NCBI GenBank assembly: GCA_038063415.1
Contig: JBBTVD010000020.1
Span: 11,629 to 75,628 of the forward strand
Direction: 5' to 3'
Length of the DNA stretch: 64,000 nucleotides
From: Patescibacteria group bacterium
GTDB lineage: Bacteria; Patescibacteriota; Microgenomatia; Levybacterales; UBA12049
Shown one piece after another: positions 13,133 through 53,109 of this stretch. Under the pieces are notes generated by a model. It ran no database searches. It saw only the letters and a program-made list of their open reading frames with translations, and was not told the DNA's origin. Within the stretch, counting starts at the first letter, position 1. Each line of letters starts with the position of its first letter. Made by a program: the position numbers and the translations under genes.

Positions 13133-13139
13133 GTAATCG

Positions 13140-15524: not shown

Positions 15525-15528
15525 ATAA

Positions 15529-15948: not shown

Positions 15949-15952
15949 AGGT

Positions 15953-16552: not shown

Positions 16553-16560
16553 AATTTTGA

Positions 16561-37131: not shown

Positions 37132-37371
37132 ATGCAAATGCAGCAATCAGTTATTCAAATAGGAAATTCTCTGGGTATTGTGATCCCAAAAGGTCTTCGT
37201 GGTGAATTACAAGCAGGAGATAAGGTACTTATTACCGGAAAGCCAACCAATATTTTGATTACACCCGCAAAAACGAATAAAACAGGCGGTGTGGATGCAA
37301 AGTTTATGCAAATGGTTGACGAATTTATTACCGAGCACGAAGATGTCCTTAAGGAATTAGCAAAACGGTGA
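37132..37371 (+). CDS. AbrB/MazE-fold antitoxin (SpoVT/AbrB domain)
   Basis: 'VIQIGNSLGIVIPKGLRGELQAGDKVLI' is the swapped-hairpin AbrB domain. It overlaps the downstream Doc gene by 4 nt. Confidence 0.65.
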   Translation: MQMQQSVIQIGNSLGIVIPKGLRGELQAGDKVLITGKPTNILITPAKTNKTGGVDAKFMQMVDEFITEHEDVLKELAKR

Positions 37372-37757
37372 ATTATTTGACTCCACAACAAGTTTTGGCA
37401 ATTCATGATGCTGTCATCAAGCGGACAGGTGGTTCTCACGGCTTGCGTGATGTAGGGCTTTTGGAATCAGCTGTCTACCGTCCACAGGCAAGTTATGATG
37501 GAGGGGATCTCTATCCGACACTTTTTGAAAAGGCTGCTGCTTTGTTCCATTCATTACTTAAAAATCATCCCTTTGTTGACGGCAACAAACGCACATCGTT
37601 GGCTTCTGCTGGATTATTTTTGCAGATAAATAACTTGCAATTAGTGAATACACATGAGAAGGAGCTGGAGTTTGCTCTGAAGGTAGAGAATGCAAGTTTG
37701 ACGTTTGAGGAAATAACTCTTTGGTTTAAGCAAAATACAAAAAAGTTATCTACATAA
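37368..37757 (+). CDS. doc: Doc (death-on-curing) toxin, Fic/Doc family
   Basis: Canonical Doc motif 'HPFVDGNKRT'. 129 aa. Confidence 0.8.
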   Translation: MNYLTPQQVLAIHDAVIKRTGGSHGLRDVGLLESAVYRPQASYDGGDLYPTLFEKAAALFHSLLKNHPFVDGNKRTSLASAGLFLQINNLQLVNTHEKELEFALKVENASLTFEEITLWFKQNTKKLST

Positions 37758-37795
37758 AAATAACTGGTCTGACCAAAATAAAGCTTTTAATAAAA

Positions 37796-38227
37796 TTATA
37801 AAAATTTTGTCATTTCAACAAAGTCCGTGTGGAAATAATGGTTTGGAAGATCAGCTGTTTTTTTGTACCCTTGTGATACATAAAAGGTAACGGATTCCCA
37901 ATCTTTTCCAGTTTGTAAATATATTTTATGCACACCATGTTCTCTGGCAAGCTTTTCTGCTTTTGCGATGAGAACTCTCCCTATACCTTGACTCCTTTTG
38001 CCGTCGGCCACCAGAAAGATGTCGATGTAGGCGACATCTGCATTAATCGTAAAAGTAAGTGATCCGATAATTTCTTTGTCTTCACATACTTCCAGTGTGA
38101 AGTCTTTTTTCTGCCACCTGTCCCAAGGGATTGGTTTTCCATAATGTTTTACATCTTCAGAAGCCCACTCTTTCTTATGGAATGCTTCAAGTTTTTTACT
38201 GCCTTTTTTGGTAATTTTTATATTCAT
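37796..38227 (-). CDS. GNAT family N-acetyltransferase
   Basis: 'VADGKRSQGIGRVLIAKAEKLAREHGVHKIYL' is GNAT motif A. The likely start is the internal Met 'MNIKITKK', not the ORF's first Met at 38362. Confidence 0.6.
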   Translation of the reverse strand: MNIKITKKGSKKLEAFHKKEWASEDVKHYGKPIPWDRWQKKDFTLEVCEDKEIIGSLTFTINADVAYIDIFLVADGKRSQGIGRVLIAKAEKLAREHGVHKIYLQTGKDWESVTFYVSQGYKKTADLPNHYFHTDFVEMTKFL

Positions 38228-38411
38228 CGCTCTCTCGAATACTTTATCCCTAGAATGCCAACATTCATAATAATAACATACATTTGGATCCTGAATTAGA
38301 TCATCAGGAAGAACCCGTTCCACAGGTTGTCTGCATATCGTTATTATACATGAGATAACCAAATACCAGCTTGTCAGTGTCTCAAAAGATTGTTATTATT
38401 GCTAAACATCT

Positions 38412-38990
38412 ATGGCACAGCAAACATTTACCGAGAGTAACTTTAAAACCCAAGTGCTTAGCGCTGAGAATATCTCATTTCGAAGAGTACAAATGGAGGA
38501 TTTGCCACTTCTTCATAGGTGGTTAAATGAACCCCATGTCCATGCGTGGTACGATAAAGATGAAGAGCAAACCTTCGATCATGTTTCCAAAGAGTATCTA
38601 CCAAAAATAACTGGTGAAGAACCAACCAAAGGCTATATTGTCCTGTATGATACGTATCCTGTTGCCTATATACAAAGTTATAGAGCGGGAGACTGGCCAG
38701 AATTTTCTCATATAACAGGCTATGGGGCTTCAGATGCAGGAGTTGATCTTTTTGTTGGAGATCCAAAACTGATGGGTAAAGGTTTCGGGACTATGATGAT
38801 AAAAAAATTTTTACAAGAGATTATTTTTGTCGATCCAGGTATTAAAAAATGTTTCATTGACCCTGAACCCAATAATAAGCGAGCAATTAGAGCCTATGAA
38901 AAAGCAGGATTCAGGTATGTCAAAACAGTACAAATGCCTGACGAGCCAGACCCCTCCTATTTCATGGAGATTAATAAAGAAGAGCAGTAA
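38412..38990 (+). CDS. aminoglycoside 6'-N-acetyltransferase-like GNAT, AAC(6')-Ib family-like
   Basis: Collinear similarity to AAC(6')-Ib as recalled: 'LLHRWLNEPHVHAWY', 'YLPKI', 'AYIQSY', 'KLMGKGFGTMMIKKFLQEIIFVDPGIKKCFIDPEPNNKRAIRAYEKAGFRYVKTVQMPDEPDPSYFM' against 'QLGKGLGTKLVRALVELLFNDPEVTKIQTDPSPSNLRAIRCYEKAGFERQGTVTTPDGPAVYM'. Confidence 0.65.
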   Translation: MAQQTFTESNFKTQVLSAENISFRRVQMEDLPLLHRWLNEPHVHAWYDKDEEQTFDHVSKEYLPKITGEEPTKGYIVLYDTYPVAYIQSYRAGDWPEFSHITGYGASDAGVDLFVGDPKLMGKGFGTMMIKKFLQEIIFVDPGIKKCFIDPEPNNKRAIRAYEKAGFRYVKTVQMPDEPDPSYFMEINKEEQ

Positions 38991-39005
38991 TACATTGTAG
39001 CCGTC

Positions 39006-39440
39006 TTACGCCTCTTTTTTGGTTTGCCATAATATTCTATCTATAGGTCCGTCTTGGGACTTTGACTTTATATGTTCATAAGACTGTTGCAAGATTTTCT
39101 CAAGGATTGGCAGCTCTATATCATGAACCTGCTTGATATACAGACAATACCCGGTAGTCGTATGTTTACCTAGCGTAGCCAGGAGTTCAGAGTAACGTGC
39201 CGTGCCGTCCATCAGGTAAATAGTAATCTTACCTTTCCTTGGATAAAAGCCAATAACAAGACCGTCACCTTCACGTCCGCTATCGTATTTGTAATGGTAG
39301 GTATCAAATCCGATAGTGCCTACATTCCACATCTTTGGTGCCTGGTCGCTTATCCGCTGCATCATTGCAATAAGCACTTGGCTATCTTTTACGGTTTGTC
39401 CGTCTAGTGAAGTAAGGTAGTCTTTTGTCCATGAATCCAT
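39006..39440 (-). CDS. DUF1801 (YdhG-like) domain protein
   Basis: About 140 aa with the typical 'GFYPRKGKITIYL' core. Confidence 0.5.
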   Translation of the reverse strand: MDSWTKDYLTSLDGQTVKDSQVLIAMMQRISDQAPKMWNVGTIGFDTYHYKYDSGREGDGLVIGFYPRKGKITIYLMDGTARYSELLATLGKHTTTGYCLYIKQVHDIELPILEKILQQSYEHIKSKSQDGPIDRILWQTKKEA

Positions 39441-39445
39441 TATAT

Positions 39446-40288
39446 CTACTTTGGTTGACCAACTTCATGATTCAATAAAAAAATTACGCCTTCTGTTTGT
39501 CTAAATGAATTTGGCCAGGAAGTCCTTCGGTCCACACGAGCTCTGATTTCATCACCAGCTTGGGGACTTGGATAGACTAACGAGCCCTTTGGAGATCTCA
39601 ATTCAGTATAGCTACAAACTAATGTCGCTGGGCTTGTTCGTGGACCTAAATCTAGCGGAGTATGATAGTAATCTGACGGTGTTGTATCCTCGACTACGGT
39701 ACCCTGAATGTATCCTACTTTACCAGATGCTGCTAGATTACGATAATAACCCCGAGAATTCGGGGTAGAAATTGGTTGTTCTATACCTAGTACACGAGTA
39801 ATTTTAGCCCTTCTTGATGGTGCATAGATGTTTTTTTCTGGGCTTAATTCGACTTGCAGTGCAACGTTTACTCCCGCCAGTTGTTGCCATGCCGCCGCTT
39901 CCTGAGCATCTTCCATCTTGAAATACAAACGGTAGCTAGGAGAGTGTCGTCGATCATCTCTTACGTTCATCCAGGCAGTTTCTATTCCTCCAAATAGCAT
40001 TTCTCCTAATACTAAAGCTCGTGATTGGTCTGGAGCGTTTAAGCCTGCTGCTTCTGGATTGTATTTAGGAGTATATAGATTTTCGTTCGCCATGGATCCA
40101 AATGGCCAATGCGTTACAACGCTATCGCTATCTTCAACACGTGCCACAAATGTTTCCGATGATAATCCACGTTTTTTAAATTCAGCTGTCATGGAGGGAT
40201 TATAACGAATTTTGAAGAGATGATCAACTATCTGTACTATCGGATGTAATAGGCTCTTGTGAAAGACGTTAGAACTCTTTACGCACAA
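39446..40288 (-). CDS. hypothetical protein; start uncertain (possibly the internal Met 'MTAEFKK')
   Basis: ORF only. The annotated N-terminus overlaps motif-1 copy a. Confidence 0.35.
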   Translation of the reverse strand: MCVKSSNVFHKSLLHPIVQIVDHLFKIRYNPSMTAEFKKRGLSSETFVARVEDSDSVVTHWPFGSMANENLYTPKYNPEAAGLNAPDQSRALVLGEMLFGGIETAWMNVRDDRRHSPSYRLYFKMEDAQEAAAWQQLAGVNVALQVELSPEKNIYAPSRRAKITRVLGIEQPISTPNSRGYYRNLAASGKVGYIQGTVVEDTTPSDYYHTPLDLGPRTSPATLVCSYTELRSPKGSLVYPSPQAGDEIRARVDRRTSWPNSFRQTEGVIFLLNHEVGQPK

Positions 40289-40305
40289 AATGGTGAGTTT
40301 TACGG
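40254..40305. repeat. motif-1 copy a (promoter-like 5' flanking repeat, core 'GTTAGAAyTyTTTACGCACArAAT...')
   Basis: Aligned by eye with the copies at 43054, 47186, 48584 and 51004. Confidence 0.6.
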
Positions 40306-40381
40306 CCCCATATTGAATACTAACTAGATTTTATCCTTTAATGTTTTAATTGTGCTATAAATAATGTAAAATACACTTCTT

Positions 40382-41134
40382 ATGGCACGACCAGAAGGAA
40401 ATCCTATTGAAGGTTTAAGAAAGCTTATTCACGCAGCTTTTATGGAAGTAGTTCGTTCTTTTGCAGGGATTCTTGCATCTCTAAAAGTGCAAAAGAGGAA
40501 ACGCAGGATGTTCGTTATTTCTAGTAGTATAGGATTTGGCATTACCTATATATTATTTCTTCTTACCTATGGAATTCTCCCCCAATTTGATCGAACAAAT
40601 GTAAGACTGCCTGTATTCTGCGAAGGGACTCAAGGCGACCTTACGATACCTTCTCGATTGAGATATGCATTGCCTAATGGAGAGATTGGTATATTGATAA
40701 AGAGTAACGCTGAAACTGCTGTTGTAGCCACTATTGATACAAGTAATCCATCTGATGCAAGCACGGTCTTTGTGGTAAGCAAAGATGGCAATAAAATGCT
40801 GAGAACGATGCATTTTGAGAACGATGTTATTAGTGCCGCTATCGATGAGGGAATTGTTTACATTTTCAATGACAAGTTAGGGTATCTTCTGGACGAACAT
40901 ACTGGCGAGGATGAAAAAACATTTCTTAAAATAGATAACTATGGTGGTCTTTCCCAATCTAATAACCCCATTCTTCCATTTGGTTCTGATGGTTATTGGT
41001 ATATGGAAACGACTGGTATCATCTCAAGTTGGCATATTGATGGGAAAGTCAAATCACGACCTCGTTTGGTGTTTAATGGCATTGCGCGAGGTTGTTTTAT
41101 ATCAGGTGAGACTGGTCAGGTTATTAACCTCTGA
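40382..41134 (+). CDS. membrane protein with a C-terminal soluble domain (paralogue A, 250 aa)
   Basis: TM 'FVISSSIGFGITYILFLLTYGIL'. From 'NGEIGILIKSNAET' onward it is identical to 44454..45266. The N-terminal ~100 aa are only ~65% identical. Confidence 0.5.
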   Translation: MARPEGNPIEGLRKLIHAAFMEVVRSFAGILASLKVQKRKRRMFVISSSIGFGITYILFLLTYGILPQFDRTNVRLPVFCEGTQGDLTIPSRLRYALPNGEIGILIKSNAETAVVATIDTSNPSDASTVFVVSKDGNKMLRTMHFENDVISAAIDEGIVYIFNDKLGYLLDEHTGEDEKTFLKIDNYGGLSQSNNPILPFGSDGYWYMETTGIISSWHIDGKVKSRPRLVFNGIARGCFISGETGQVINL

Positions 41135-41192
41135 GAAGTAATTATGCATTCACTTGAAAAGCCCATAGTTTTATGATAAGATTTACGACTCT

Positions 41193-42548
41193 ATGGCGAG
41201 AGTAGATCATGAATCAGGAAGAACCAGTGTACTCGATCTAAATCGAGCAAAAGCAGTTGGATTCTTGGATTATAACTTGAGAGGACAAAGACATAAAACT
41301 TCAGTCATGCATGATTGGCGTGATTTTTTGGCAAGTGGAAGGACCGGAGGTTATCTTGAATTACCTACAGGCGCAGATAAGACCATTGTAGCTGAATTTG
41401 TGGCACTTGGTCTGAAGACAATTGTTACCTCATCAACAAGAGAGACCTTAGATGAAACGAAAGCAACAATTGAGAGTCATGCAGGGGGGATTGAGGTAAC
41501 TAATTATGATGGCCGCCTAACAGGTGTAAGAGGAAATGTCATCAACACAACATTACCTTCCCTTGAAACATTATCAGATATTCCAGCGGTTGCAAAAGGA
41601 GTAGAATTGATCATTGTTGATGATGATACATTGGGAAGACAACGCCAGGAACTGTGGCGGAGATTTCCAAATGCGCTTTTTGTAGGACTTACCACTACAT
41701 CGGATTTTTCTCAACGTGATCAATTAGAACGCAGAGGGACGGTAGATCCGGGTGAACGTTGGACGGGAATGTTTAAAAATCGTATTCATAGGCTTAGCAG
41801 AGAGGAATTAGTGACAAAAGCTAAAATAGGAGAAAGAATAGCAGCAGCAACTGACCTTCCATCAATAAATAATGTCCTTGATGATATGGTAATAATGGTA
41901 CGCAAACGTAATCAAGCAGGATCAGTTTTAGATTTTTATAGAATGATGGCAGAACTCCTTCCAGACACGCTTCGTCTAGATAAACAAGAAATACTTTTAG
42001 AAGGAATAAGTAATACGAATGTTGATCAACAAAAAATGGGAAAAAAAGCCTTGTTGTTCCTTAATCTGAGATCTGTCTTTACCGTAGTACAACCGCATTT
42101 TTCTGCTGATGAAGAGACAAATGTAGAGATCTTGCAAACAGCATTATTGCAATGTTATGAGAAAATGAAAAATAAAAAAACAACTCCGCAACAAATATTA
42201 AGGGAAGGGGCGACTGCTTCATTGGTAAGAAAGCAAAGAGAGATGCAGGAGGTAATCGTCTATCGGGATACGAGAGAGCCCGATAGGGAAGATGGAAGAC
42301 AAGCTGATCTTATGAGCGCTGTTGAGGAGAGGGCTATGATTGCTTCTGTTTTAGGAGAACTTTCTGAAAGAGAAAGAAAAGTGATAGAATTACGTTTTGG
42401 GATTGGAACTAATGATTGGAGAGAACAAACTCTGGAGGAAGTCGGTCATGTAGTTGGTGTATCAGGGAGAAGAATTAGCGTAATTGAGACAAAAACATTA
42501 AGTAAGTTACGAGACACGAGATTAAGGAAGTTTCTCGATGATTTATGA
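41193..42548 (+). CDS. fusion protein: degenerate SF2-helicase/ResIII-like N-terminal domain plus C-terminal sigma-70 region-4 HTH (451 aa)
   Basis: N-terminal 'GYLELPTGADKTIVAEFVA' resembles a Walker A/motif I with Gly-to-Ala/Asp substitutions. 'ELIIVDDD' sits in the DExH position. C-terminal 'LSERERKVIELRFGIGTNDWREQTLEEVGHVVGVSGRRISVIETKTLSKLR' is a classic sigma-70 region 4. Sigma regions 2 and 3 are not evident. Confidence 0.5.
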   Translation: MARVDHESGRTSVLDLNRAKAVGFLDYNLRGQRHKTSVMHDWRDFLASGRTGGYLELPTGADKTIVAEFVALGLKTIVTSSTRETLDETKATIESHAGGIEVTNYDGRLTGVRGNVINTTLPSLETLSDIPAVAKGVELIIVDDDTLGRQRQELWRRFPNALFVGLTTTSDFSQRDQLERRGTVDPGERWTGMFKNRIHRLSREELVTKAKIGERIAAATDLPSINNVLDDMVIMVRKRNQAGSVLDFYRMMAELLPDTLRLDKQEILLEGISNTNVDQQKMGKKALLFLNLRSVFTVVQPHFSADEETNVEILQTALLQCYEKMKNKKTTPQQILREGATASLVRKQREMQEVIVYRDTREPDREDGRQADLMSAVEERAMIASVLGELSERERKVIELRFGIGTNDWREQTLEEVGHVVGVSGRRISVIETKTLSKLRDTRLRKFLDDL

Positions 42549-42643
42549 TAGTACAAAGGTTTGAGTCTGTCTACCGTGAGCCATATTTAGCTCATATTAT
42601 ATCAAGAAAGTCTTTATACAACTCTACTGATTTCTGCTAAAAT

Positions 42644-42955
42644 ATGGCAATGAGTCAAAAGTTGAGTTTCAAACCATCGGATATTGAAAAAGTATATAAA
42701 GATCAGGCCAAAAGATATTCAGGCTTTGCTAATGATTCTTTCAGTTGGCTTTATCTTGAAAAGCCATGGGGCACAACATCACCGCTATTTTTGAGACCAG
42801 TTGCTGATATTGTAAATGAAACAATAAAAGCGGGTTTTACTATAAAGTCATTAGAAGAACCCTCTGTTCCATTGGCAGCAAAAAAAGCAGACCATGTGAA
42901 TTATTTGAAGTATTCTTTTTGCCCATCACGAATTGCTGTCATTGCCACAAAATAA
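42644..42955 (+). CDS. small hypothetical protein (103 aa), possibly a remnant of a methyltransferase C-terminus
   Basis: ORF with a weak resemblance to the C-terminal beta strands of class I methyltransferases. Low confidence. Confidence 0.25.
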   Translation: MAMSQKLSFKPSDIEKVYKDQAKRYSGFANDSFSWLYLEKPWGTTSPLFLRPVADIVNETIKAGFTIKSLEEPSVPLAAKKADHVNYLKYSFCPSRIAVIATK

Positions 42956-43053
42956 AAATGATGAATCAACCACAAAGCTTGTTGGTGCAACGTAGGGGGC
43001 TAAGGAGTTTTGTTGCAATGATCCAAATGCTCATGAGAAGAGTATATCATTAA

Positions 43054-43100
43054 GTTAGAATTTTTTACGCACAGAATCAGGAGTTTAAATTCCAAGCTTT
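43054..43100. repeat. motif-1 copy b (upstream of the Fic gene)
   Basis: 'GTTAGAATTTTTTACGCACAGAATCAGGAGTTTAAATTCCAAGCTTT'. Confidence 0.6.
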
Positions 43101-43198
43101 ATATGAATTACTTTAGGGATGGTGTTAAATGTTAAAATGGCAATTGTTAAATGTTCGATAGTGTGATATTCTCTTTTTAGCTTCAAATTTAGCTAAAT

Positions 43199-44371
43199 AT
43201 GTTAAATATTGAAAATAAAATGAGTAAGTATTCATACGACAAATTATTACTAGTACAGCCCAAATTTAACTCTACTTTGACAGATTTAATTATTGAGTTA
43301 GATTATTTAAGGAAAAAGCCTTTAGGTGGTAGCACTCCACCTCGGATATTTTTCCAATTAAAAAGTATATTTCATACCTTAGAAAGTATTGGGTCTGCAC
43401 GTATTGAAGGAAATCATACGACTATTGCTGAGTTTATTGAAACGAAGTTAGAGAAACATAAGAGTAAAGACGAAAAAATAAATGAAATTCAAAATATAGA
43501 AGCAGCAATGGATTTTATTGATAATTCTATAGATGCAACACCTATAAATGACGCTTTCATACGTGAGTTACATAAGAGAGTTGTGGGTGGTTTATCTCCT
43601 CATGAAGAAGGAGATACTCATCCTGGTGAATATCGAAAAGGAAATATTAAAATTGCTGGTACACAACATGTACCCCCAGAATCTCTGCAAGTCATTGATT
43701 ATATGCAGGAGTTAAATGGATTTATTAATAATGACGATCCACATAAATATGATCTGCTTAAAATTGCATTAGCACATCATCGTTTTGTATGGATTCACCC
43801 CTTTGGAAATGGTAATGGTCGTACTGTTAGATTACTTACCTACGCACAACTTATAAAGTCAGGTTTTAATGTTCACGTAGGAAGAATTATTAACCCTACT
43901 GCAATTTTTTGTAGCGATCGAGAGAAATATTATTCGTATTTATCGAAAGCAGATGCAGGGGATAGTACTGGCCTCTTAAATTGGAGTGAGTATGTGTTAT
44001 CTGGATTGAAACAGGAGATAGAAAAAATTGACCATTTGTTAGATTATAGTTATTTATCTGAAAAAATATTACTTCCTGCCATTAGTTTCTCACTTGATAG
44101 AAAAGTTATTACTCAGCTTGAGGCGGATATTTTAAAAATTGCGGTTAAAAAACAATTATTTCAAGCATCAGACTTAAAAGAACTATTTCCCAACACAATT
44201 CCGGCTCAAGTTTCTCGTTATATCAGTCGTTTGAAAGAAAAAAAGATGATTGCTCCGGAAAATAAAAATAGTAGAAAGTACCTTATAGATTTTGGTAATA
44301 ATTACTTACTTCGGGGTGTTATTAAAATGTTAGATCAACATGGTTTTTTACCTCTTAAAGGAGAGTCTTAA
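43199..44371 (+). CDS. Fic family protein, class II (N-terminal inhibitory helix), with a C-terminal winged-helix-like domain (390 aa)
   Basis: Fic motif 'HPFGNGNGRTVRLL', in which Asn occupies the usual D/E position. An inhibitory-helix motif (S/T)xxxE(G/N) is present as 'SARIEGN'. Confidence 0.75.
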   Translation: MLNIENKMSKYSYDKLLLVQPKFNSTLTDLIIELDYLRKKPLGGSTPPRIFFQLKSIFHTLESIGSARIEGNHTTIAEFIETKLEKHKSKDEKINEIQNIEAAMDFIDNSIDATPINDAFIRELHKRVVGGLSPHEEGDTHPGEYRKGNIKIAGTQHVPPESLQVIDYMQELNGFINNDDPHKYDLLKIALAHHRFVWIHPFGNGNGRTVRLLTYAQLIKSGFNVHVGRIINPTAIFCSDREKYYSYLSKADAGDSTGLLNWSEYVLSGLKQEIEKIDHLLDYSYLSEKILLPAISFSLDRKVITQLEADILKIAVKKQLFQASDLKELFPNTIPAQVSRYISRLKEKKMIAPENKNSRKYLIDFGNNYLLRGVIKMLDQHGFLPLKGES

Positions 44372-44374
44372 AAG

Positions 44375-44428
44375 GTTCGAGTCCGTCCGTCGTAAAGCTA
44401 GAGTTCGAGGCTGAAATGTTGGGCAGGA
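44375..44428. repeat. motif-2 copy A (3' flanking repeat 'GGTTCGAGTCCGTCCGyCGTrAGGCTAGAGTTCGAGGCTrAAT...')
   Basis: Starts 4 nt after the Fic stop codon. Aligned with the copies at 48506 and 52507. Confidence 0.6.
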
Positions 44429-44453
44429 CAAACGTCTGCTATACTTATTAAGG

Positions 44454-45266: not shown

Positions 45267-45324
45267 GAAGTAATTATGCATTCACTTGAAAAGCCCATAG
45301 TTTTATGATAAGATTTACGACTCT

Positions 45325-46680
45325 ATGGCGAGAGTAGATCATGAATCAGGAAGAACCAGTGTACTCGATCTAAATCGAGCAAAAGCAGTTGGATTCTTGG
45401 ATTATAACTTGAGAGGACAAAGACATAAAACTTCAGTCATGCATGATTGGCGTGATTTTTTGGCAAGTGGAAGGACCGGAGGTTATCTTGAATTACCTAC
45501 AGGCGCAGATAAGACCATTGTAGCTGAATTTGTGGCACTTGGTCTGAAGACAATTGTTACCTCATCAACAAGAGAGACCTTAGATGAAACGAAAGCAACA
45601 ATTGAGAGTCATGCAGGGGGGATTGAGGTAACTAATTATGATGGCCGCCTAACAGGTGTAAGAGGAAATGTCATCAACACAACATTACCTTCCCTTGAAA
45701 CATTATCAGATATTCCAGCGGTTGCAAAAGGAGTAGAATTGATCATTGTTGATGATGATACATTGGGAAGACAACGCCAGGAACTGTGGCGGAGATTTCC
45801 AAATGCGCTTTTTGTAGGACTTACCACTACATCGGATTTTTCTCAACGTGATCAATTAGAACGCAGAGGGACGGTAGATCCGGGTGAACGTTGGACGGGA
45901 ATGTTTAAAAATCGTATTCATAGGCTTAGCAGAGAGGAATTAGTGACAAAAGCTAAAATAGGAGAAAGAATAGCAGCAGCAACTGACCTTCCATCAATAA
46001 ATAATGTCCTTGATGATATGGTAATAATGGTACGCAAACGTAATCAAGCAGGATCAGTTTTAGATTTTTATAGAATGATGGCAGAACTCCTTCCAGACAC
46101 GCTTCGTCTAGATAAACAAGAAATACTTTTAGAAGGAATAAGTAATACGAATGTTGATCAACAAAAAATGGGAAAAAAAGCCTTGTTGTTCCTTAATCTG
46201 AGATCTGTCTTTACCGTAGTACAACCGCATTTTTCTGCTGATGAAGAGACAAATGTAGAGATCTTGCAAACAGCATTATTGCAATGTTATGAGAAAATGA
46301 AAAATAAAAAAACAACTCCGCAACAAATATTAAGGGAAGGGGCGACTGCTTCATTGGTAAGAAAGCAAAGAGAGATGCAGGAGGTAATCGTCTATCGGGA
46401 TACGAGAGAGCCCGATAGGGAAGATGGAAGACAAGCTGATCTTATGAGCGCTGTTGAGGAGAGGGCTATGATTGCTTCTGTTTTAGGAGAACTTTCTGAA
46501 AGAGAAAGAAAAGTGATAGAATTACGTTTTGGGATTGGAACTAATGATTGGAGAGAACAAACTCTGGAGGAAGTCGGTCATGTAGTTGGTGTATCAGGGA
46601 GAAGAATTAGCGTAATTGAGACAAAAACATTAAGTAAGTTACGAGACACGAGATTAAGGAAGTTTCTCGATGATTTATGA
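45325..46680 (+). CDS. helicase-like/sigma-70 region-4 fusion protein, second identical copy
   Basis: Identical 451-aa translation to 41193..42548. Confidence 0.5.
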   Translation: MARVDHESGRTSVLDLNRAKAVGFLDYNLRGQRHKTSVMHDWRDFLASGRTGGYLELPTGADKTIVAEFVALGLKTIVTSSTRETLDETKATIESHAGGIEVTNYDGRLTGVRGNVINTTLPSLETLSDIPAVAKGVELIIVDDDTLGRQRQELWRRFPNALFVGLTTTSDFSQRDQLERRGTVDPGERWTGMFKNRIHRLSREELVTKAKIGERIAAATDLPSINNVLDDMVIMVRKRNQAGSVLDFYRMMAELLPDTLRLDKQEILLEGISNTNVDQQKMGKKALLFLNLRSVFTVVQPHFSADEETNVEILQTALLQCYEKMKNKKTTPQQILREGATASLVRKQREMQEVIVYRDTREPDREDGRQADLMSAVEERAMIASVLGELSERERKVIELRFGIGTNDWREQTLEEVGHVVGVSGRRISVIETKTLSKLRDTRLRKFLDDL

Positions 46681-46775
46681 TAGTACAAAGGTTTGAGTCT
46701 GTCTACCGTGAGCCATATTTAGCTCATATTATATCAAGAAAGTCTTTATACAACTCTACTGATTTCTGCTAAAAT

Positions 46776-47087
46776 ATGGCAATGAGTCAAAAGTTGAGTT
46801 TCAAACCATCGGATATTGAAAAAGTATATAAAGATCAGGCCAAAAGATATTCAGGCTTTGCTAATGATTCTTTCAGTTGGCTTTATCTTGAAAAGCCATG
46901 GGGCACAACATCACCGCTATTTTTGAGACCAGTTGCTGATATTGTAAATGAAACAATAAAAGCGGGTTTTACTATAAAGTCATTAGAAGAACCCTCTGTT
47001 CCATTGGCAGCAAAAAAAGCAGACCATGTGAATTATTTGAAGTATTCTTTTTGCCCATCACGAATTGCTGTCATTGCCACAAAATAA
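46776..47087 (+). CDS. small hypothetical protein, second identical copy
   Basis: Identical to 42644..42955. Confidence 0.25.
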   Translation: MAMSQKLSFKPSDIEKVYKDQAKRYSGFANDSFSWLYLEKPWGTTSPLFLRPVADIVNETIKAGFTIKSLEEPSVPLAAKKADHVNYLKYSFCPSRIAVIATK

Positions 47088-47185
47088 AAATGATGAATCA
47101 ACCACAAAGCTTGTTGGTGCAACGTAGGGGGCTAAGGAGTTTTGTTGCAATGATCCAAATGCTCATGAGAAGAGTATATCATTAA

Positions 47186-47232
47186 GTTAGAATTTTTTAC
47201 GCACAGAATCAGGAGTTTAAATTCCAAGCTTT
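47186..47232. repeat. motif-1 copy c (duplicate of copy b inside unit 2)
   Basis: Offset 4132 from copy b. Confidence 0.6.
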
Positions 47233-47330
47233 ATATGAATTACTTTAGGGATGGTGTTAAATGTTAAAATGGCAATTGTTAAATGTTCGATAGTGTGATA
47301 TTCTCTTTTTAGCTTCAAATTTAGCTAAAT

Positions 47331-48503
47331 ATGTTAAATATTGAAAATAAAATGAGTAAGTATTCATACGACAAATTATTACTAGTACAGCCCAAATTTA
47401 ACTCTACTTTGACAGATTTAATTATTGAGTTAGATTATTTAAGGAAAAAGCCTTTAGGTGGTAGCACTCCACCTCGGATATTTTTCCAATTAAAAAGTAT
47501 ATTTCATACCTTAGAAAGTATTGGGTCTGCACGTATTGAAGGAAATCATACGACTATTGCTGAGTTTATTGAAACGAAGTTAGAGAAACATAAGAGTAAA
47601 GACGAAAAAATAAATGAAATTCAAAATATAGAAGCAGCAATGGATTTTATTGATAATTCTATAGATGCAACACCTATAAATGACGCTTTCATACGTGAGT
47701 TACATAAGAGAGTTGTGGGTGGTTTATCTCCTCATGAAGAAGGAGATACTCATCCTGGTGAATATCGAAAAGGAAATATTAAAATTGCTGGTACACAACA
47801 TGTACCCCCAGAATCTCTGCAAGTCATTGATTATATGCAGGAGTTAAATGGATTTATTAATAATGACGATCCACATAAATATGATCTGCTTAAAATTGCA
47901 TTAGCACATCATCGTTTTGTATGGATTCACCCCTTTGGAAATGGTAATGGTCGTACTGTTAGATTACTTACCTACGCACAACTTATAAAGTCAGGTTTTA
48001 ATGTTCACGTAGGAAGAATTATTAACCCTACTGCAATTTTTTGTAGCGATCGAGAGAAATATTATTCGTATTTATCGAAAGCAGATGCAGGGGATAGTAC
48101 TGGCCTCTTAAATTGGAGTGAGTATGTGTTATCTGGATTGAAACAGGAGATAGAAAAAATTGACCATTTGTTAGATTATAGTTATTTATCTGAAAAAATA
48201 TTACTTCCTGCCATTAGTTTCTCACTTGATAGAAAAGTTATTACTCAGCTTGAGGCGGATATTTTAAAAATTGCGGTTAAAAAACAATTATTTCAAGCAT
48301 CAGACTTAAAAGAACTATTTCCCAACACAATTCCGGCTCAAGTTTCTCGTTATATCAGTCGTTTGAAAGAAAAAAAGATGATTGCTCCGGAAAATAAAAA
48401 TAGTAGAAAGTACCTTATAGATTTTGGTAATAATTACTTACTTCGGGGTGTTATTAAAATGTTAGATCAACATGGGTTTTTGCCTCTTAAAGGTGAGTCC
48501 TAA
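47331..48503 (+). CDS. Fic family protein, class II, second copy
   Basis: Identical 390-aa translation to 43199..44371. A few silent or near-terminal nucleotide differences occur in the last ~30 bp. Confidence 0.75.
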   Translation: MLNIENKMSKYSYDKLLLVQPKFNSTLTDLIIELDYLRKKPLGGSTPPRIFFQLKSIFHTLESIGSARIEGNHTTIAEFIETKLEKHKSKDEKINEIQNIEAAMDFIDNSIDATPINDAFIRELHKRVVGGLSPHEEGDTHPGEYRKGNIKIAGTQHVPPESLQVIDYMQELNGFINNDDPHKYDLLKIALAHHRFVWIHPFGNGNGRTVRLLTYAQLIKSGFNVHVGRIINPTAIFCSDREKYYSYLSKADAGDSTGLLNWSEYVLSGLKQEIEKIDHLLDYSYLSEKILLPAISFSLDRKVITQLEADILKIAVKKQLFQASDLKELFPNTIPAQVSRYISRLKEKKMIAPENKNSRKYLIDFGNNYLLRGVIKMLDQHGFLPLKGES

Positions 48504-48505
48504 AA

Positions 48506-48560
48506 GGTTCGATTCTATCTGCCGTGAGGCTAGAATTCGAGGATAAATTATTGGGCAAGG
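48506..48560. repeat. motif-2 copy B
   Basis: 'GGTTCGATTCTATCTGCCGTGAGGCTAGAATTCGAGGATAAATTATTGGGCAAGG'. Confidence 0.6.
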
Positions 48561-48583
48561 GTACGCGCGCGGCGTTAGAACTC

Positions 48584-48620
48584 TTTACGCACAAAATTGT
48601 GAGTTTTATATTCCAGCTTT
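48584..48620. repeat. motif-1 copy d (best sigma70 match: -35 TTTACG, 17-bp spacer, -10 TATATT), not followed by a gene
   Basis: 'GTTAGAACTCTTTACGCACAAAATTGTGAGTTTTATATTCCAGCTTT' contains the palindrome CACAA-AA-TTGTG. Confidence 0.55.
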
Positions 48621-48700
48621 TATTCAAATCATTCAAGAAGACATGTACTTCAGCTTGTGTAAGGCATATTCATATACGGTGCAATACGAAGCTAATAAGC

Positions 48701-49069
48701 CTATTTAATTACGCGGACTTGTCTGTGTTGATCGAGTTCATCTGCGTTAGTGATAGCCCATTGCTGTAATCCTTGTAAAGGTTCAACGAGACTAATTCCG
48801 AGCTTTGTTAGTGAATAGGAAACCTTTGTAACGTTCCCTTTTATGACTTTACGTTCAATAAAGCCATCTGTTTCGAGCTTGCGTAACGTTTGCGTCAACA
48901 TTTTTTGAGAAATACATTCAATTTTTCGTTTGAGTTCCCCAAAATAATAGGGCTGTTCCGAAAGTGCTGCTAGAACCAAAATAGTCCACTTATCTGCAAT
49001 TTTCATAAGTGCATAGCGGGTAATGCATACTGCGGAAAATATATTAAATTTAGAAGTTGGTTTCATCAC
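48701..49069 (-). CDS. HxlR-family winged-helix transcriptional regulator
   Basis: 'CISQKMLTQTLRKLETDGFIERKVIKGNVTKVSYSLTKLG' is the typical HxlR core. It is divergent from a reductase gene. Confidence 0.65.
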   Translation of the reverse strand: MMKPTSKFNIFSAVCITRYALMKIADKWTILVLAALSEQPYYFGELKRKIECISQKMLTQTLRKLETDGFIERKVIKGNVTKVSYSLTKLGISLVEPLQGLQQWAITNADELDQHRQVRVIK

Positions 49070-49148
49070 TAGTTACCTTTTAGTGCCTTCTTGAAAAAAA
49101 GAAGGTAGTCACTTATAGTAACTATATGATAACACAAGGAGACTGTAT

Positions 49149-49814
49149 ATGAAAATAGCAATTATTGGAGCGGGTAATATCGGTGGATATCTCGCAACAC
49201 AGTTAAGTAAAGTTGGCCATGGAGTCACTATCTGTTTTACACGAAATGAAGAAAAGCTTAAAGAACGAGCTAGTAAAATTGGCAATGGTGTTCAGGGCTC
49301 TTCTGTACGTGAAGCGGTAAAAAAGAGTGAGCTAGTGATTTTATCTACCAGGTGGGAAGATATTGATGCCGCCTTGTTACAAGCGAAAGATTTATCAGAC
49401 AAAATAGTCATAGATGCAACAAATCAATATGGAGCAACAGGTCTTATAGATATTGGTACAAGCGTCGCAGTATTTAACCAAGCTCGTATGCCCGGAGTAA
49501 AACTCGTCAGGACTTTTAATATGTTCTTTGCAACGTATCTGTCCGAAGTTGGTCGTGGTCAACATCGACCGGTCGCTATGTTTTTTGCTTCCGAAGATAA
49601 ATACGCAAAAGAAGTTGCCACCCAGATTATAGCTGACATAGGTTTTGAACCAGTATATTTAGGTGGTTTGGATGTTGCTAAGTTTATTGAGATGCCGAAT
49701 GGAATGCTTGTCGGAAAAATATATCGACCCAAACAGGCACAAGCAATTGCTAAAGCTGTACAACAAGGTGATCTTGCTTTGGCTTCTCAACTGGCTAAAA
49801 ATGTAAGCGAGTAG
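49149..49814 (+). CDS. NADP-binding oxidoreductase, F420-dependent NADP reductase (Npd)-like family
   Basis: Rossmann motif 'MKIAIIGAGNIGGYLATQL'. About 220 aa, typical of PF03807-type proteins. Confidence 0.55.
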   Translation: MKIAIIGAGNIGGYLATQLSKVGHGVTICFTRNEEKLKERASKIGNGVQGSSVREAVKKSELVILSTRWEDIDAALLQAKDLSDKIVIDATNQYGATGLIDIGTSVAVFNQARMPGVKLVRTFNMFFATYLSEVGRGQHRPVAMFFASEDKYAKEVATQIIADIGFEPVYLGGLDVAKFIEMPNGMLVGKIYRPKQAQAIAKAVQQGDLALASQLAKNVSE

Positions 49815-49897
49815 CCGCATTTTCTTTTAGGAAAAGGAGATCTTGTCCGCAGTTCGTAATTAGTGGTAGTAATTTTTCGGTCGTATATAGATACTTT

Positions 49898-50845
49898 TTA
49901 GAAACTATACCTGCCATTTACTGCGAGTTTAGCACCGTTAACAATTGCGGTTGTTCCATCATATTTATATACGAATGTACGTCCTGCTGAATCAGCTGCC
50001 ACAGAAAGAGCAAAAGAGCTTGAGGTATTTTGCCCAGAGCCCGTTTCAAACTGATCTTTTGCTGCAACCGGAAGATTAATTTGCGTATATCCTGACCCTC
50101 CGGAGTTAGCATCATATGTGAAATCAACCCAATAGAACATTACGTTCCCTAAAATGAAAAACGTTGCTTTGTTAGTTGTTGGATTATTAGTAAAAGCACC
50201 TCCACCCGAAGTATAAGTTGGTGTGAAATTAAAGGTTCCAGGATAGCCTTGTGGACTTGCTTCATAAGAATAGTAGGGATTTGTTATTGCCGAATTGGCA
50301 AGAGAATAATCATTATTAGCAAAAAGAGTTACAGTTGTATCGGTTGAATAGCTACTTGAGAGTACAACACCATAATAAGTTGTAGAATTATTAGTAAGTT
50401 TCACACGTGTACCTTTAGTAAAGATTGCTGTTCGGTCAGTACCTGATATTTTGAAGCTATTTGCAGAAACATATGTCCATGTATCATTCGCTGTAGTCCA
50501 ACCATCTTGATTAGCTAAAGACAATGTTGCTCCAGAACTACTTCTGGATATAGTCAAACCATTGCCCGCATTAACATCTTTGAGCCAAGTTACTTGAGTT
50601 AAACCGGTATCGCAGCTTGCCCCCGGTGACACTAGTGTGACGATTCCGCGAGAGTCTTCGCATGCATTAATCAGACTACTATCACCCCAACTTCCAAAAC
50701 TAGCATGTACCAAACGAACAAAGTAGGGTCCAAAAAGTGTAAACGTAATTCCGAAGAGAATCACAAGAAGAGGAATACCAAAAGAGAAAATAAGACGGGT
50801 TCGCTTAACGATATGAAGGTATGATGTAATCTTAAGACGGTTCAT
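49898..50845 (-). CDS. membrane-anchored Ser/Thr/Gly/Asn-rich secreted hypothetical protein
   Basis: TM 'LIFSFGIPLLVILFGITFTLFG'. Low-complexity beta-rich body. Confidence 0.4.
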   Translation of the reverse strand: MNRLKITSYLHIVKRTRLIFSFGIPLLVILFGITFTLFGPYFVRLVHASFGSWGDSSLINACEDSRGIVTLVSPGASCDTGLTQVTWLKDVNAGNGLTISRSSSGATLSLANQDGWTTANDTWTYVSANSFKISGTDRTAIFTKGTRVKLTNNSTTYYGVVLSSSYSTDTTVTLFANNDYSLANSAITNPYYSYEASPQGYPGTFNFTPTYTSGGGAFTNNPTTNKATFFILGNVMFYWVDFTYDANSGGSGYTQINLPVAAKDQFETGSGQNTSSSFALSVAADSAGRTFVYKYDGTTAIVNGAKLAVNGRYSF

Positions 50846-51003
50846 ATTATATTTATTAACTTAATTCAATCTAATAATAAATGTAACTGTAAGTCAATAG
50901 GAAAAATAAATTTGTACATTGTGATAAGGACGTTCGATTCCATTTATCCGTTAGAATATTTTAGCAATTTTTGAGGCTAAAAATGAAATAAAACCGTGGC
51001 AGG

Positions 51004-51065
51004 TTCTCGTGAAGGACATTAGAATTTTTACGCACAAAATCCTGATTTTTAGATTTCCAGCTTTT
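51004..51065. repeat. motif-1 copy e (upstream of the 453-aa gene; -35 TTTACG, 17-bp spacer, -10 TAGATT)
   Basis: 'CTCGTGAAGGACATTAGAATTTTTACGCACAAAATCCTGATTTTTAGATTTCCAGCTTTT'. Confidence 0.6.
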
Positions 51066-51099
51066 AGATTAAAATTTGTTACTATCAGCCATGATATAA

Positions 51100-52461
51100 T
51101 TGAAATATATGAGTGAGATACCTCGTCCTACAGACGTAACCCCTACAGACTATCAGAGGGAGATAGTATCATTATTAGGATCAGATGGTTCTGAACAGAA
51201 TAAATATGAGCTAACTCTTGTGAACAGGCCAGATTGGCTTCCTCCTGAGAGTGGGGTATATTTTTTTCAGGATTCAGGAAAATGTAGCCAAATTCATACT
51301 ATACAGAGCGAGGATAATATAGAATATCAGGTTTCTTCTAATGCTGATCCGACCTTTCCTGGTTTCCAGGTTGGTGTGCCATGGTCAATTGGCAGAAGAT
51401 TAGCACCCAACGATCGTATATTTCTCAATAGCTCTTCATTCGTTGTCGTGCATACACCTGACGTTGAACCTATTCTCTATGATATTTCTCCTGAAGAAGT
51501 AGCTGTACCACCTCAAAGGAGTGAAAGAACATTCTCTTCTAAAGATATGATGTCTGGAATCCTTTCCAGAGAGATTTTTACTCAGACTTCACTGCCTGGT
51601 GTTGTGCGAGATCCACTAGTTGTAGCTGCAATGATTGCTGAGGAAAAAGAACGATCCAAGAGGGAGAGTAGGGGCGCGAGACCAGAAGCTCAATTTACTG
51701 CCATAGAGCCAGCGGTGGTCACTGAAGTAGATCTCAATGCTCCAAGGACAAAAATACTTAGTATCACCAAAGACTTCGATGGAAGTGCTATGGGGTTCCA
51801 TATATATATAATCACTGTTGCTGGTGAGAATAAAAGAGAGCTTAGAGTCCCTAATACTGGTGTATTTATACACATTGATGAGGATACGTCTCTTGTACGC
51901 AGACTTCAAACTTCATCATTATCACCACACATCTCAACCGAAGATGCTCCTACAGAATATATTGTTATGTTAGGTAAAGAACTCTCTGATGGTGAAGATT
52001 GGATGCGTGAGTGGCAGTTAAAGAATGAGCTTGCTTCTTCTGCAAGTGAACAATCTGGTACCTCATCAGCGCTTTTAGTTCAAAAGAGTGTAACACCAAA
52101 TGATCCGGCTCATCCTCAAGAAGCAAGAGTTGTTCCAGCGCAACTATCCTTTGGAAGCATTAGCTTTACTGGTCAATTTCTTGCAAGACATATAGGTGGC
52201 TCATATAGACAAATGATTTTAGAGGCACTTTTTGAAGCTAGCATGCCAGGGTATGAATCGACCCTATATAAGGCAAAGGACATACTGGAAGAGGTTATAA
52301 GAAACGCTTTACAAGGTGAAGCTGAAAGAATTTTTTCTGATGAGCAGAGTCCGCAGCCGGTAGCTAGAGGGTTTACATCAGTAATTGCAGAAGTAAAGAA
52401 AATTGTTGAAGGAAATAGAAGGCAAAAAGCTTGGGATGATCAGGTTGGAATGTATAGATAG
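51100..52461 (+). CDS. hypothetical protein (453 aa), bracketed by motif-1 and motif-2 like the Fic genes
   Basis: ORF only. Confidence 0.4.
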   Translation: MKYMSEIPRPTDVTPTDYQREIVSLLGSDGSEQNKYELTLVNRPDWLPPESGVYFFQDSGKCSQIHTIQSEDNIEYQVSSNADPTFPGFQVGVPWSIGRRLAPNDRIFLNSSSFVVVHTPDVEPILYDISPEEVAVPPQRSERTFSSKDMMSGILSREIFTQTSLPGVVRDPLVVAAMIAEEKERSKRESRGARPEAQFTAIEPAVVTEVDLNAPRTKILSITKDFDGSAMGFHIYIITVAGENKRELRVPNTGVFIHIDEDTSLVRRLQTSSLSPHISTEDAPTEYIVMLGKELSDGEDWMREWQLKNELASSASEQSGTSSALLVQKSVTPNDPAHPQEARVVPAQLSFGSISFTGQFLARHIGGSYRQMILEALFEASMPGYESTLYKAKDILEEVIRNALQGEAERIFSDEQSPQPVARGFTSVIAEVKKIVEGNRRQKAWDDQVGMYR

Positions 52462-52506
52462 ATACGTTTTCTTCCATTGTTTTTCGATGTTAGAAAGGGG
52501 TTCGAG

Positions 52507-52548
52507 TCCGTCCGCCGTGAGGCTAGAGTGCGAGGCTAAATTTATCAG
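52507..52548. repeat. motif-2 copy C, directly abutting the 3' end of tRNA-Trp
   Basis: 'GGGGTTCGAGTCCGTCCGCCGTGAGGCTAGAGTGCGAGGCTAAATTTATCAG'. Confidence 0.6.
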
Positions 52549-52620
52549 CAGGGGCGCACAGATTCGAACTGTGAAAAGCAGTTTTGGAGACTGCTGTGAT
52601 AGCCATTTCACCACACCCCT
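52549..52620 (-). tRNA. tRNA-Trp (anticodon CCA)
   Basis: Minus-strand fold: acceptor AGGGGTG/CGCCCCT (one G.U pair), D arm GTGA-AATGGCTA-TCAC, anticodon arm GCAGT-CTCCAAA-ACTGC, 4-nt variable loop, T arm CACAG-TTCGAAT-CTGTG, discriminator G. No CCA is encoded. Confidence 0.8.
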
Positions 52621-52880: not shown

Positions 52881-52930
52881 ATGGACAATTATACACTATT
52901 TGAGGCAGGATTGAAAGAGTTCTTTACGTG

Positions 52931-53002: not shown

Positions 53003-53007
53003 GCTAG

Positions 53008-53092: not shown

Positions 53093-53109
53093 TTAAATAT
53101 AAAACAAAA

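Follow-up and report, generated by a model that had tools for sequence, protein, structure and literature searches.

Tandem islands at a single target gene are known from several bacteria. In the islands of ICEs (integrative and conjugative elements) and IMEs (integrative and mobilizable elements) of Streptococcus, cis-mobilizable elements (CIMEs) and tandem accretion yield integrase-less blocks with direct att-like repeats, stacked at the 3′ end of the target gene, with newcomers entering at the target-proximal site and the blocks mostly decayed (Guedon et al., 2017; PMC5704250). In the streamlined genomes of Prochlorococcus, variable islands at conserved tRNA genes consist of tycheposons, elements with a tyrosine recombinase and a replication module, which are stacked side by side with partial-tRNA separators and degraded remnants, and for which excised or tandem-junction forms occur in subpopulations (Hackl et al., bioRxiv 10.1101/2020.12.28.424599). 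The small genomes of Dehalococcoides likewise hold horizontally acquired cargo in tandem islands, which share one small-RNA target, ssrA, the gene for tmRNA (PMC3146451). Here, we analyse a comparable locus that abuts the 3′ end of a tRNA-Trp gene in a 64,000-nt stretch of DNA (hereafter, the window; contig JBBTVD010000020.1 of assembly GCA_038063415.1, positions 11,629 to 75,628) from a member of the candidate phyla radiation (CPR; Patescibacteria). Its tRNA-proximal 12.3 kb (~40.25–52.55 kb of the window) appear to consist of three or four small integrase-less elements in tandem, with motif D3, cargo and motif D4 following one another in each. The reading we favour, with about an even chance of being right, is a CIME-like or tycheposon-like tandem accretion of such elements at tRNA-Trp, inside a larger and older variable segment. 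Unlike the streptococcal CIMEs, the repeat here contains 5 nt of the tRNA, the second motif, D3, marks the other end of the blocks and the host belongs to the CPR; unlike the tycheposon islands, neither a tyrosine recombinase nor a replication module was found, and the separators are D4 and D3 rather than partial tRNAs; and, unlike in the Dehalococcoides islands, the target is tRNA-Trp rather than ssrA and a recombinase gene was not found.

The array is delimited by two short motifs, both of which the earlier note on this DNA had recognised and which prove to be real and non-random. D3 (36–65 nt; ~60 nt by profile), with the core GTTAGAAyTyTTTACGCACAAAAT, is present in five copies in the window (40267, 43053, 47185, 48573 and 51016), and D4 (54 nt, beginning GGTTCGAGTCCGTCCGCCGTGAGGCTAGAG) forms three direct-repeat copies (44374, 48506 and 52499). 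Within the 64-kb window, the two motifs are limited to 40.2–52.6 kb, and shuffled sequence gives no matches. A partial 5′ half of D4 also follows the stop codon of open reading frame (ORF) 451. The features of the array and its right flank are as follows (window coordinates).

40240–40315, plus strand: J0, left end of the array, with a weak core-like sequence and the D3 copy D3a (40267–40302), no D4 (nhmmer E 9e-17)
40382–44371, plus strand: Fic module copy 1, consisting of ORF250, ORF451, ORF103, the internal D3b and the gene for a Fic/helix-turn-helix (HTH) protein
40382–41134, plus strand: ORF250, membrane protein, a 5′-replaced version of ORF270
41193–42548, plus strand (copy 2 at 45325–46680): ORF451, decayed superfamily 2 (SF2) helicase fused to sigma-70 region 4
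42644–42955, plus strand: ORF103, orphan
43053–43088, plus strand: internal D3b, between ORF103 and Fic
43199–44371, plus strand (copy 2 at 47331–48503): Fic/HTH protein
44374–44427, plus strand: D4(1), starting 3 nt past the Fic stop codon (E 3e-18)
44428–44592, plus strand: joint J, unique 165 nt linking copies 1 and 2
44454–48503, plus strand: Fic module copy 2, consisting of ORF270, ORF451′, ORF103′, D3b′ (47185–47220) and Fic′
48506–48622, plus strand: J2, composite junction of D4(2) (48506–48559), core-like GCAAGG and D3a′ (48573–48608)
48701–49069, minus strand: HxlR regulator of block E3, divergent from the reductase
49149–49814, plus strand: F420/NADP-type oxidoreductase of block E3
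49898–50845, minus strand: ORF315 of block E3, secreted or membrane-anchored orphan with no library match
50931–51066, plus strand: J2.5, composite junction of a degenerate D4-like stretch (50931–51005), core GCAGG and D3c (51001–51066)
51100–52461, plus strand: ORF453, orphan of the tRNA-proximal cassette, convergent with tRNA-Trp (probable start 51109), unmatched in Pfam, NCBIfam, PADLOC, PHROGs and PDB
52499–52552, plus strand: D4(3), ending in 5 nt that form the 3′ end of tRNA-Trp
52548–52620, minus strand: intact tRNA-Trp (CCA), 58.6 bits
52704–52880: rpmG, on the minus-strand upstream side of tRNA-Trp
52930–53184: tRNA-Thr/Tyr/Thr cluster, beyond rpmG

When the junctions are aligned on a short GCAGG-like core, their plus-strand order reads unrelated sequence–core–D3a (40253), D4(1)–core–J (44424), D4(2)–core–D3a′ (48556), degenerate D4–core–D3c (50999) and, at the right end, D4(3)–core–reverse complement of tRNA-Trp (52549). 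D3a′ is identical to D3a at 35 of 36 positions, 40251–40302 and 51001–51051 are 83% identical, and 48584–48622 and 51027–51066 are 87.5% identical. D4 direct repeats bound E2, and E3 and E4 jointly; E3 and E4 are parted only by the degenerate D4 recognised by eye. In the scheme that we propose, E1 and E2 would be the two copies of the 4.13-kb Fic module, E3 would comprise the HxlR, reductase and ORF315 genes, and E4 would be ORF453. Such a chain of D3–cargo–D4 units would be the product of one site-specific insertion after another at the tRNA-proximal site, with an attL-type far end (J0), attP-like composites between the units and an attR-type end at the tRNA (D4(3)). The insertions would have been performed by a recombinase encoded elsewhere or now lost, with D3 as an element-side arm that might double as a promoter. 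The elements themselves would by now be largely decayed, and the Fic module apparently still unstable, with a one-copy form and a form bearing the copy-to-copy joint in the population. What the sequences show is the anatomy, the shift in composition, the differences among relatives, the conservation of D3 and the polymorphic copy number; that the mechanism was site-specific recombination, and what parts D3 and D4 play in it, we infer. We count for accretion the confinement of the motifs, the grammar of the junctions, a step in codon composition at the left end, the differing cargo of relatives and the D3 copy in one of them, as well as the mobile type of the Fic cargo, a tRNA-Trp remnant in another relative and the polymorphism of the Fic module, all detailed below. 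Of the mechanisms raised in the earlier note, cassette accretion via the two motifs is the best fit to this architecture.

The junctions fold no better than shuffled sequences on either strand (z-scores +1.3 to −1.6), indicating that they are neither attC-like hairpins nor terminators. Two possible origins of the motifs were rejected: local alignments of D3 to the tRNA-Trp 3′ half, of which it might have been a decayed version, are no better than those of shuffles, and D4 does not represent the ancestral trailer of tRNA-Trp because the sequence past this gene is not conserved, the trailers of four relatives being unalignable. As a separate observation, the first ~20 nt of D4 (GGTTCGAGTCCGTCCGCCGT; 44374–44393, 48506–48525 and 52499–52518) resemble a tRNA T-arm plus the 3′ strand of the acceptor, on the strand opposite to tRNA-Trp. 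This 20-mer matches two viral contigs, in one case within a phage tRNA cluster and in the other (L109, 6919–6938) in a tRNA-3′-end-like fragment ending in CCA.

The window proteins match a metagenome-assembled genome (MAG) named ‘Patescibacteria group bacterium’ and contigs from the Hainich groundwater well H14 (ENA ERZ1292645 and ERZ1292660; Logan ERR3858139 and ERR3858141), the latter being 99.6–100% identical to the window at the DNA level; the window thus belongs to a CPR genome assembled from metagenomes. The flanking 433-aa protein has no match in the contigs of GTDB representative genomes, placing the lineage outside these representatives. Genes and RNAs were called from an ORF listing, ARAGORN, Rfam and Pfam/NCBIfam, with further protein scans using PADLOC and PHROGs. 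Related genomes were reached through homologues of L33 (84–90% identical), which provided five independent contexts, namely, the relatives L013, L014, L096/L097 and L098 and one JGI contig. The common backbone reads MreB/Wzy–def–fmt–L28–M50–(433/446-aa protein)–tRNA-Thr/Tyr/Thr–L33(–tRNA-Trp), and its orthologous proteins are 52–70%, mostly ~57%, identical. Past tRNA-Trp, each relative carries different genes: a fucosidase, a choline kinase/APH-family kinase, a glycolipid-binding protein and others in L014; NUDIX, DUF1697, HxlR, SnoaL and flavodoxin-like genes in L013; and DUF2079, ADH, an MBL-fold protein and ClpP in L096/L097. For no window gene at 32.7–52.5 kb does the equivalent interval of L013, L014, L096/L097 or L098 hold a homologue, so that the synteny comparison proposed in the earlier note comes out on the side of accessory rather than core content. 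Two backbone genes from further left in the window reappear in relatives: the MGH1-like glycoside hydrolase (29481–30998) lies 6 kb past tRNA-Trp in L014 (54% identity), and the DNA-alkylation-repair gene (32016–32729) directly follows L33 in L098 (60% identity, same relative orientation). These reappearing genes delimit a lineage-variable segment of ~32.7–52.5 kb, which reaches to the left of 37132. The interval after rpmG–tRNA-Trp is a lineage-wide hot spot of gene gain and loss. As an aside, L013 and L014 carry an HxlR–MFS–NUDIX insertion between the 446-aa gene and tRNA-Thr that the window is without; accordingly, the tRNA cluster is variable on both flanks in this lineage.

The D3 profile recovers one strong copy beyond the window (E 3e-13). 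This copy belongs to L014, where its position and orientation with respect to L33 and tRNA-Trp are those seen in the window. It lies 69 nt upstream of an unrelated alpha-L-fucosidase gene, which occupies the space between D3 and tRNA-Trp, and is 83–92.5% identical to the window copies, compared with ~64% for coding DNA, 77–91% for tRNAs and ~57% for orthologous proteins. This D3 adjoins the sequence AGAGTTTAG followed directly by CAGGGGC, a 16/18 match to the end of the L014 tRNA-Trp plus its trailer. Furthermore, L096 (and also L097) carries at 10608–10646 a 38-nt remnant of the 3′ half of a window/L014-type tRNA-Trp, which starts in the anticodon loop and reaches as far as the 3′ end (34–35 of 39 positions identical; 0 of 1000 shuffles), 21 nt downstream of an intact L013/L096-type tRNA-Trp. 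Hence, recombination inside tRNA-Trp has happened in the lineage, and it appears to have replaced the tRNA-Trp gene of L096 itself.

Composition sets the array apart from its left neighbourhood. The mean GC content at third codon positions (GC3) is 0.272 for the eight different array genes (40.3–52.5 kb) versus 0.342 for the 33 genes outside the variable segment (Mann–Whitney p = 0.0006), and the nine genes at 32.7–40.2 kb are native in this respect (GC3 0.347, p = 0.99). Fic is the compositional extreme (GC 0.32, GC3 0.21), and sliding GC and tetranucleotide profiles deviate around the Fic genes only; the fucosidase cassette of L014 is not clearly atypical in GC3. Per-gene GC3 thus places a compositional step at ~40.25 kb, at the leftmost D3 and junction J0, and not at 37132, where the earlier note had begun a single island of about 15 kb. 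Its proposed composition check of 37–52.5 kb succeeds for 40.3–52.5 kb and fails for the native 37.1–40.2 kb, so that the one island gives way to a compositionally deviant, motif-bounded array at 40.25–52.55 kb, with a synteny boundary at ~32.7 kb. The genes at 32.7–40.2 kb (MFS, toxin–antitoxin (TA), GNATs and DUF1801) would then be older, compositionally ameliorated accessory DNA of the same hot spot. Measured against the classical tRNA island, the array stops, as the earlier note had it, at the tRNA 3′ end (52548), is of atypical composition (40.3–52.5 kb only) and is absent from relatives; an integrase and a distal repeat of the tRNA were not found.

The duplication of the Fic module, already seen in the earlier note, has a period of 4,132 bp (40461–44425 versus 44593–48557, 98.97% identical). 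The central 3.64 kb (40700–44343 and 44832–48475) are 100% identical between the copies, as are the two 390-aa Fic proteins, and the ends have diverged (left 240 nt, ~90% identical; right 84 nt, ~80%), with no similarity beyond. ORF270 of copy 2 has extra N-terminal transmembrane segments and ORF250 of copy 1 has a different, shorter N-terminus, implying that the left ends of the copies were replaced rather than merely diverged. Joint J, in which ORF270 begins and its first transmembrane segments are encoded, is without D3. In other assemblies, contigs L009/L001 and L012 carry a single module with the left end of copy 1 and the right end of copy 2, and contigs L010 and L011 stop at 40710/44842 and 40676/44808, respectively, just past 40675, the last base that tells the two left ends apart. 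These break points indicate that both left ends are present in those samples and that the assembly graph forks there. The joint R1–J–L2 is physically real, given that a mere 357 nt part one core from the next across it and that it holds no long k-mers common to other copies; the exact identity of the core may partly come from a collapsed repeat node. Taken together, the single-copy and fork-broken contigs of the same population define the module as a copy-number or junction polymorphism; excised forms or tandem-repeat junctions in subpopulations have been reported for tycheposons too (Hackl et al., bioRxiv 10.1101/2020.12.28.424599).

On present sequence data, the second copy would be either a chromosomal tandem or a 4,132-bp circle residing beside one integrated copy. 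For the latter, the window would thread the circle (L2–core–R1–J) into a single integrated module, a possibility that we take seriously while doubting it: a de Bruijn graph with one core and two incoming and outgoing edges fits a tandem and a circle equally, the other assemblies are one-copy (L009, L012) or stop where the graph forks (L010, L011), the core matches exactly between copies whose ends differ by 10–20%, and the exact ORF270 product is on record on no other contig. Against the circle, the module is without a recognisable replication or recombination protein, ORF451 being a helicase remnant.

ORF451 appeared to be an orphan in a word-indexed search, and exhaustive HMMER searching found its family, fusion proteins of 700–1100 aa that combine ResIII/DEAD, Helicase_C and sigma-70 region 4. 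ORF451 is 52% identical over its first 217 residues to the 784-aa family member P0125, is without the ~250-residue Helicase_C part present in that protein, and has GADKT in place of GSGKT (Walker A) and VDDD in place of VDEVD; the loss of Helicase_C and the altered motifs identify it as a decayed derivative. The match of its region 4 to the MzaA model is local only (52 bits versus a cut-off of 800), and, with no Mza partner genes found, assignment to the MZA defence system was rejected. A metagenome scan with the helicase–sigma4 alignment matched only P0125's own 4.2-kb contig (L015), where this full-length member sits beside a GNAT and a glyoxalase-like gene, without Fic; the genome scan with the same alignment returned generic SF2 helicases only (~25% identity). 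This SF2 helicase–sigma-70 region 4 family (P0125–P0182), which comprises 84 clusters at 50% identity and E<1e-10, is in itself little known.

Along almost all of its length, the 390-aa Fic protein fits the PADLOC SoFic model (E 5.7e-48), but it differs from SoFic-type proteins in scoring only 42 bits against the NCBIfam equivalog NF046030 (cut-off 550), so that it was not accepted as SoFic; considering this score and the great breadth of the family, no defence function is deduced. Its homologues number >6000, with 62–76% identity across several CPR phyla, Planctomycetes (Scalindua) and one Bacteroidota isolate; a 75%-identical Fic adjoins TrbC/VirB4-like genes in Levybacteria, and relatives with ~70% DNA identity reside on Pasteurella and Photobacterium plasmids. 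This spread across phyla and the plasmid and TrbC/VirB4 contexts clearly mark it as a horizontally travelling gene. With regard to the remaining cargo, PDB sequence searches gave no credible match for ORF453, ORF248 or ORF103, and Pfam gave nothing credible at E<=10 for these three, ORF270 or ORF315. Single-sequence AlphaFold2 models were too poor for use in the case of ORF453 (predicted local distance difference test score, pLDDT, 36) and ORF248 (pLDDT 29). To the eye, ORF103 suggested a methyltransferase with an internal deletion, for which no support was found.

The main rival to accretion takes D3 for a conserved promoter or operator and D4 for a 3′-untranslated or end-of-gene element, both spread by local segmental duplication without a dedicated site-specific system, the cargo between D3 and tRNA-Trp being exchanged by homologous recombination at the conserved flanks. 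D3 holds sigma-70-like hexamers (TTTACG-17-TATATT), with the 17-nt spacing kept in three copies and in L014, and in four of the five window copies, as in L014, it faces a gene, sitting 58–130 nt ahead of the start codons of the cargo; D4, for its part, starts 3–38 nt past cargo stop codons. The hexamers and the orientation make a purely regulatory D3 possible, the 4.1-kb duplication shows that segmental duplication occurs at the locus, and no recombinase was found. This reading nevertheless strikes us as somewhat unlikely. D3a′ (48573) has no gene to drive, there being no plus-strand gene downstream and the next gene being convergent, and the genes of block E3 are of mixed orientation. D3 is conserved, at the level of tRNAs, over all of its 60 nt, with the spacer and 20 nt upstream among them; the L014 copy is joined to a copy of a tRNA end; D4 shows no terminator-like or other fold; and the array-wide shift in GC3 points to import.

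Accretion itself has several observations to contend with. Neither within the array nor next to it is there a tyrosine or serine recombinase, a transposase or a relaxase. In line with the earlier note, which had found no recombinase or conjugation gene, scans with Pfam, NCBIfam, PADLOC and PHROGs match none of the ORFs at 32.7–52.5 kb to a recombinase, transposase, relaxase or type IV secretion system (T4SS) family. We also know of no cognate ICE, IME or integrase for this lineage. The same note had found no att duplication of the tRNA end, which does not hold as put, since a three-fold D4 direct repeat has its last copy overlapping the tRNA-Trp 3′ end by 5 nt, and which stands in that the tRNA itself is not copied. 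A classical tRNA att repeat takes in the 3′ half of the tRNA; the tRNA share of D4 is just these 5 nt, and a search of the window at E<=1 shows no partial tRNA-Trp. The E1/E2 joint is without D3, the left end is without a clear D4, and the fourth, degenerate D4-like copy at 50931–51005 was recognised by eye only. Beyond the window, D3 was found in just one other genome (L014), its strict pattern being unmatched in viral contigs, and D4 was not seen elsewhere in a search limited to strict patterns in viral contigs. The 16/18 repeat in L014 is not significant over the whole 10 kb (29 of 200 shuffles), the five cargo orphans (ORF248, ORF250/270, ORF103, ORF315 and ORF453) are uncharacterised, and every sequence compared is a metagenome assembly.

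Two further alternatives are far less probable. Vertical inheritance of core genes that merely happen to lie next to the tRNA agrees with the native GC3 and tetranucleotide composition of the 32.7–40.2-kb genes and is otherwise very improbable, contradicted by the deviant GC3 of the array genes and by the five relatives, which keep the backbone and carry different genes after the tRNA. An integron-like array of promoterless cassettes with attC-type sites and an IntI-type integrase would resemble the locus in its small, mostly co-oriented gene units parted by repeated junctions of ~60–135 nt (~115–135 nt for the composites) and in the GTTAGAA start of D3, close to the attC R′ core GTTRRRY, but it is effectively refuted by the lack of intI and of an attC-like imperfect hairpin on either strand. 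attI and the inverse core site are lacking too, and there are multi-gene units such as the three genes of block E3 in both orientations.

Much of what the locus contains is commonplace, including a variable region next to a tRNA, a TA pair, GNATs, Fic genes and an HxlR–reductase pair. Less ordinary in a CPR genome are the pair of boundary motifs, the conservation of D3 ahead of unrelated cargo and the polymorphic, recombinase-less 4.1-kb unit. A bolder extension of the accretion reading, which we regard as rather improbable, is that D3 and D4 represent the two ends of a new family of small cargo cassettes of Patescibacteria, inserted at tRNA-Trp by a trans-acting recombinase with its gene elsewhere in the genome. 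D3, with its tRNA-level conservation between genera, would be the recognition arm of this enzyme; the system would be functionally analogous to integrons or CIME mobilization and unrelated to them in sequence; and the 4,132-bp Fic module would have been caught mid-act, as a circle or a tandem junction. The acquisition and turnover of accessory genes in the tiny, streamlined genomes of CPR bacteria are poorly understood, and recognisable integrative elements are rare in them. If the cassettes are indeed site-specific, the locus would offer a testable handle, consisting of the tRNA-Trp target, the junction sequences and, in a public groundwater time series, the polymorphic 4.1-kb unit, which could serve the hunt for the recombinase and the measurement of gene flux in situ. 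If, instead, D3 and D4 are merely regulatory repeats, what is left of the finding is a variable region of the ordinary sort that contains a segmental duplication.

To the left of the array, the genes of the variable segment are the following, the first three forming its extension beyond 37132.

32779–34680, minus strand: orphan 633-aa protein
34768–35883, plus strand: MFS transporter
35884–37071, minus strand: MFS transporter
37132–37371, plus strand: MazE/AbrB-fold antitoxin, 79 aa (Pfam PF04014, E 1.8e-5)
37368–37757, plus strand: Doc toxin, 129 aa (PF02661, E 4e-22)
37796–38362, minus strand: GNAT 1 (Pfam)
38412–38990, plus strand: GNAT 2, Acetyltransf_8 (Pfam), with only distant AAC(6′) likeness
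39006–39440, minus strand: DUF1801 protein (Pfam)
39446–40192, minus strand: ORF248, orphan with no match in any library (the mechanical ORF extends to a TTG at 40288)

The genes listed in the earlier note for this part and for the array (AbrB/Doc, two GNATs, DUF1801, HxlR plus reductase, Fic and tRNA-Trp) are all present according to Pfam, NCBIfam and ARAGORN. The antitoxin and Doc genes overlap by 4 nt; with a small toxin of the Fic/Doc fold behind a small, overlapping antitoxin gene, they are a standard Doc-type TA pair, native in composition (GC3 z-scores −0.6 and +0.4, respectively) and outside the motif-bounded array. The suggested AAC(6′)-Ib-like identity of GNAT 2 holds only in that AAC(6′) models are matched; the scores are far under the cut-offs (AAC_6p_set_A, 124 bits versus 280; AAC(6′)-Ib, 97 versus 400), and the protein is better described as a generic Acetyltransf_8 GNAT than as an aminoglycoside acetyltransferase. 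A 21-nt inverted repeat (95% complementary; blastn-short E 0.006) between the Doc gene (37615–37635) and Fic (44048–44068/48180–48200) is probably a chance occurrence in AT-rich coding sequence.

Three more observations concern the remainder of the window. tRNA-Trp usually precedes secE; here, the secE cluster lies 36 kb from tRNA-Trp, and secE follows tRNA-Trp in none of the relatives either. This cluster, secE–nusG–rplK–rplA (14709–16752, minus strand), is parted from rplJ–rplL (8620–9567), the whole spanning 8620–16752, by ~5 kb encoding CBM96/CBM_4_9-type secreted proteins and an rve-family transposase (9825–10847). Near the left end of the window, a 141-nt direct repeat (3320–3460 and 4262–4402; 87% identical, 942 nt apart) flanks an orphan 227-aa ORF (3564–4247) close to small, excisionase-like genes of the MerR/HTH_17 type and to a DDE fragment of IS1595 type (6868–7239), and this locus may be another small insertion. 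Finally, the 433-aa gene and tRNA-Thr(tgt) enclose a non-coding block of ~200 nt (window 53215–53440, minus strand; L014 7982–8186; L013 7018–7236), which in the relatives is found between the MFS and NUDIX genes. It has no Rfam match, even at E<=10, and is preceded by TTGACT-17-TATACT. The block is ~70% identical in two relatives with ~57% identical proteins, and RNAalifold predicts a long closing helix with internal hairpins, with compensatory double changes at 13 of 49 pairs in a set of only three sequences, making it a candidate for a new structured small RNA of the lineage.

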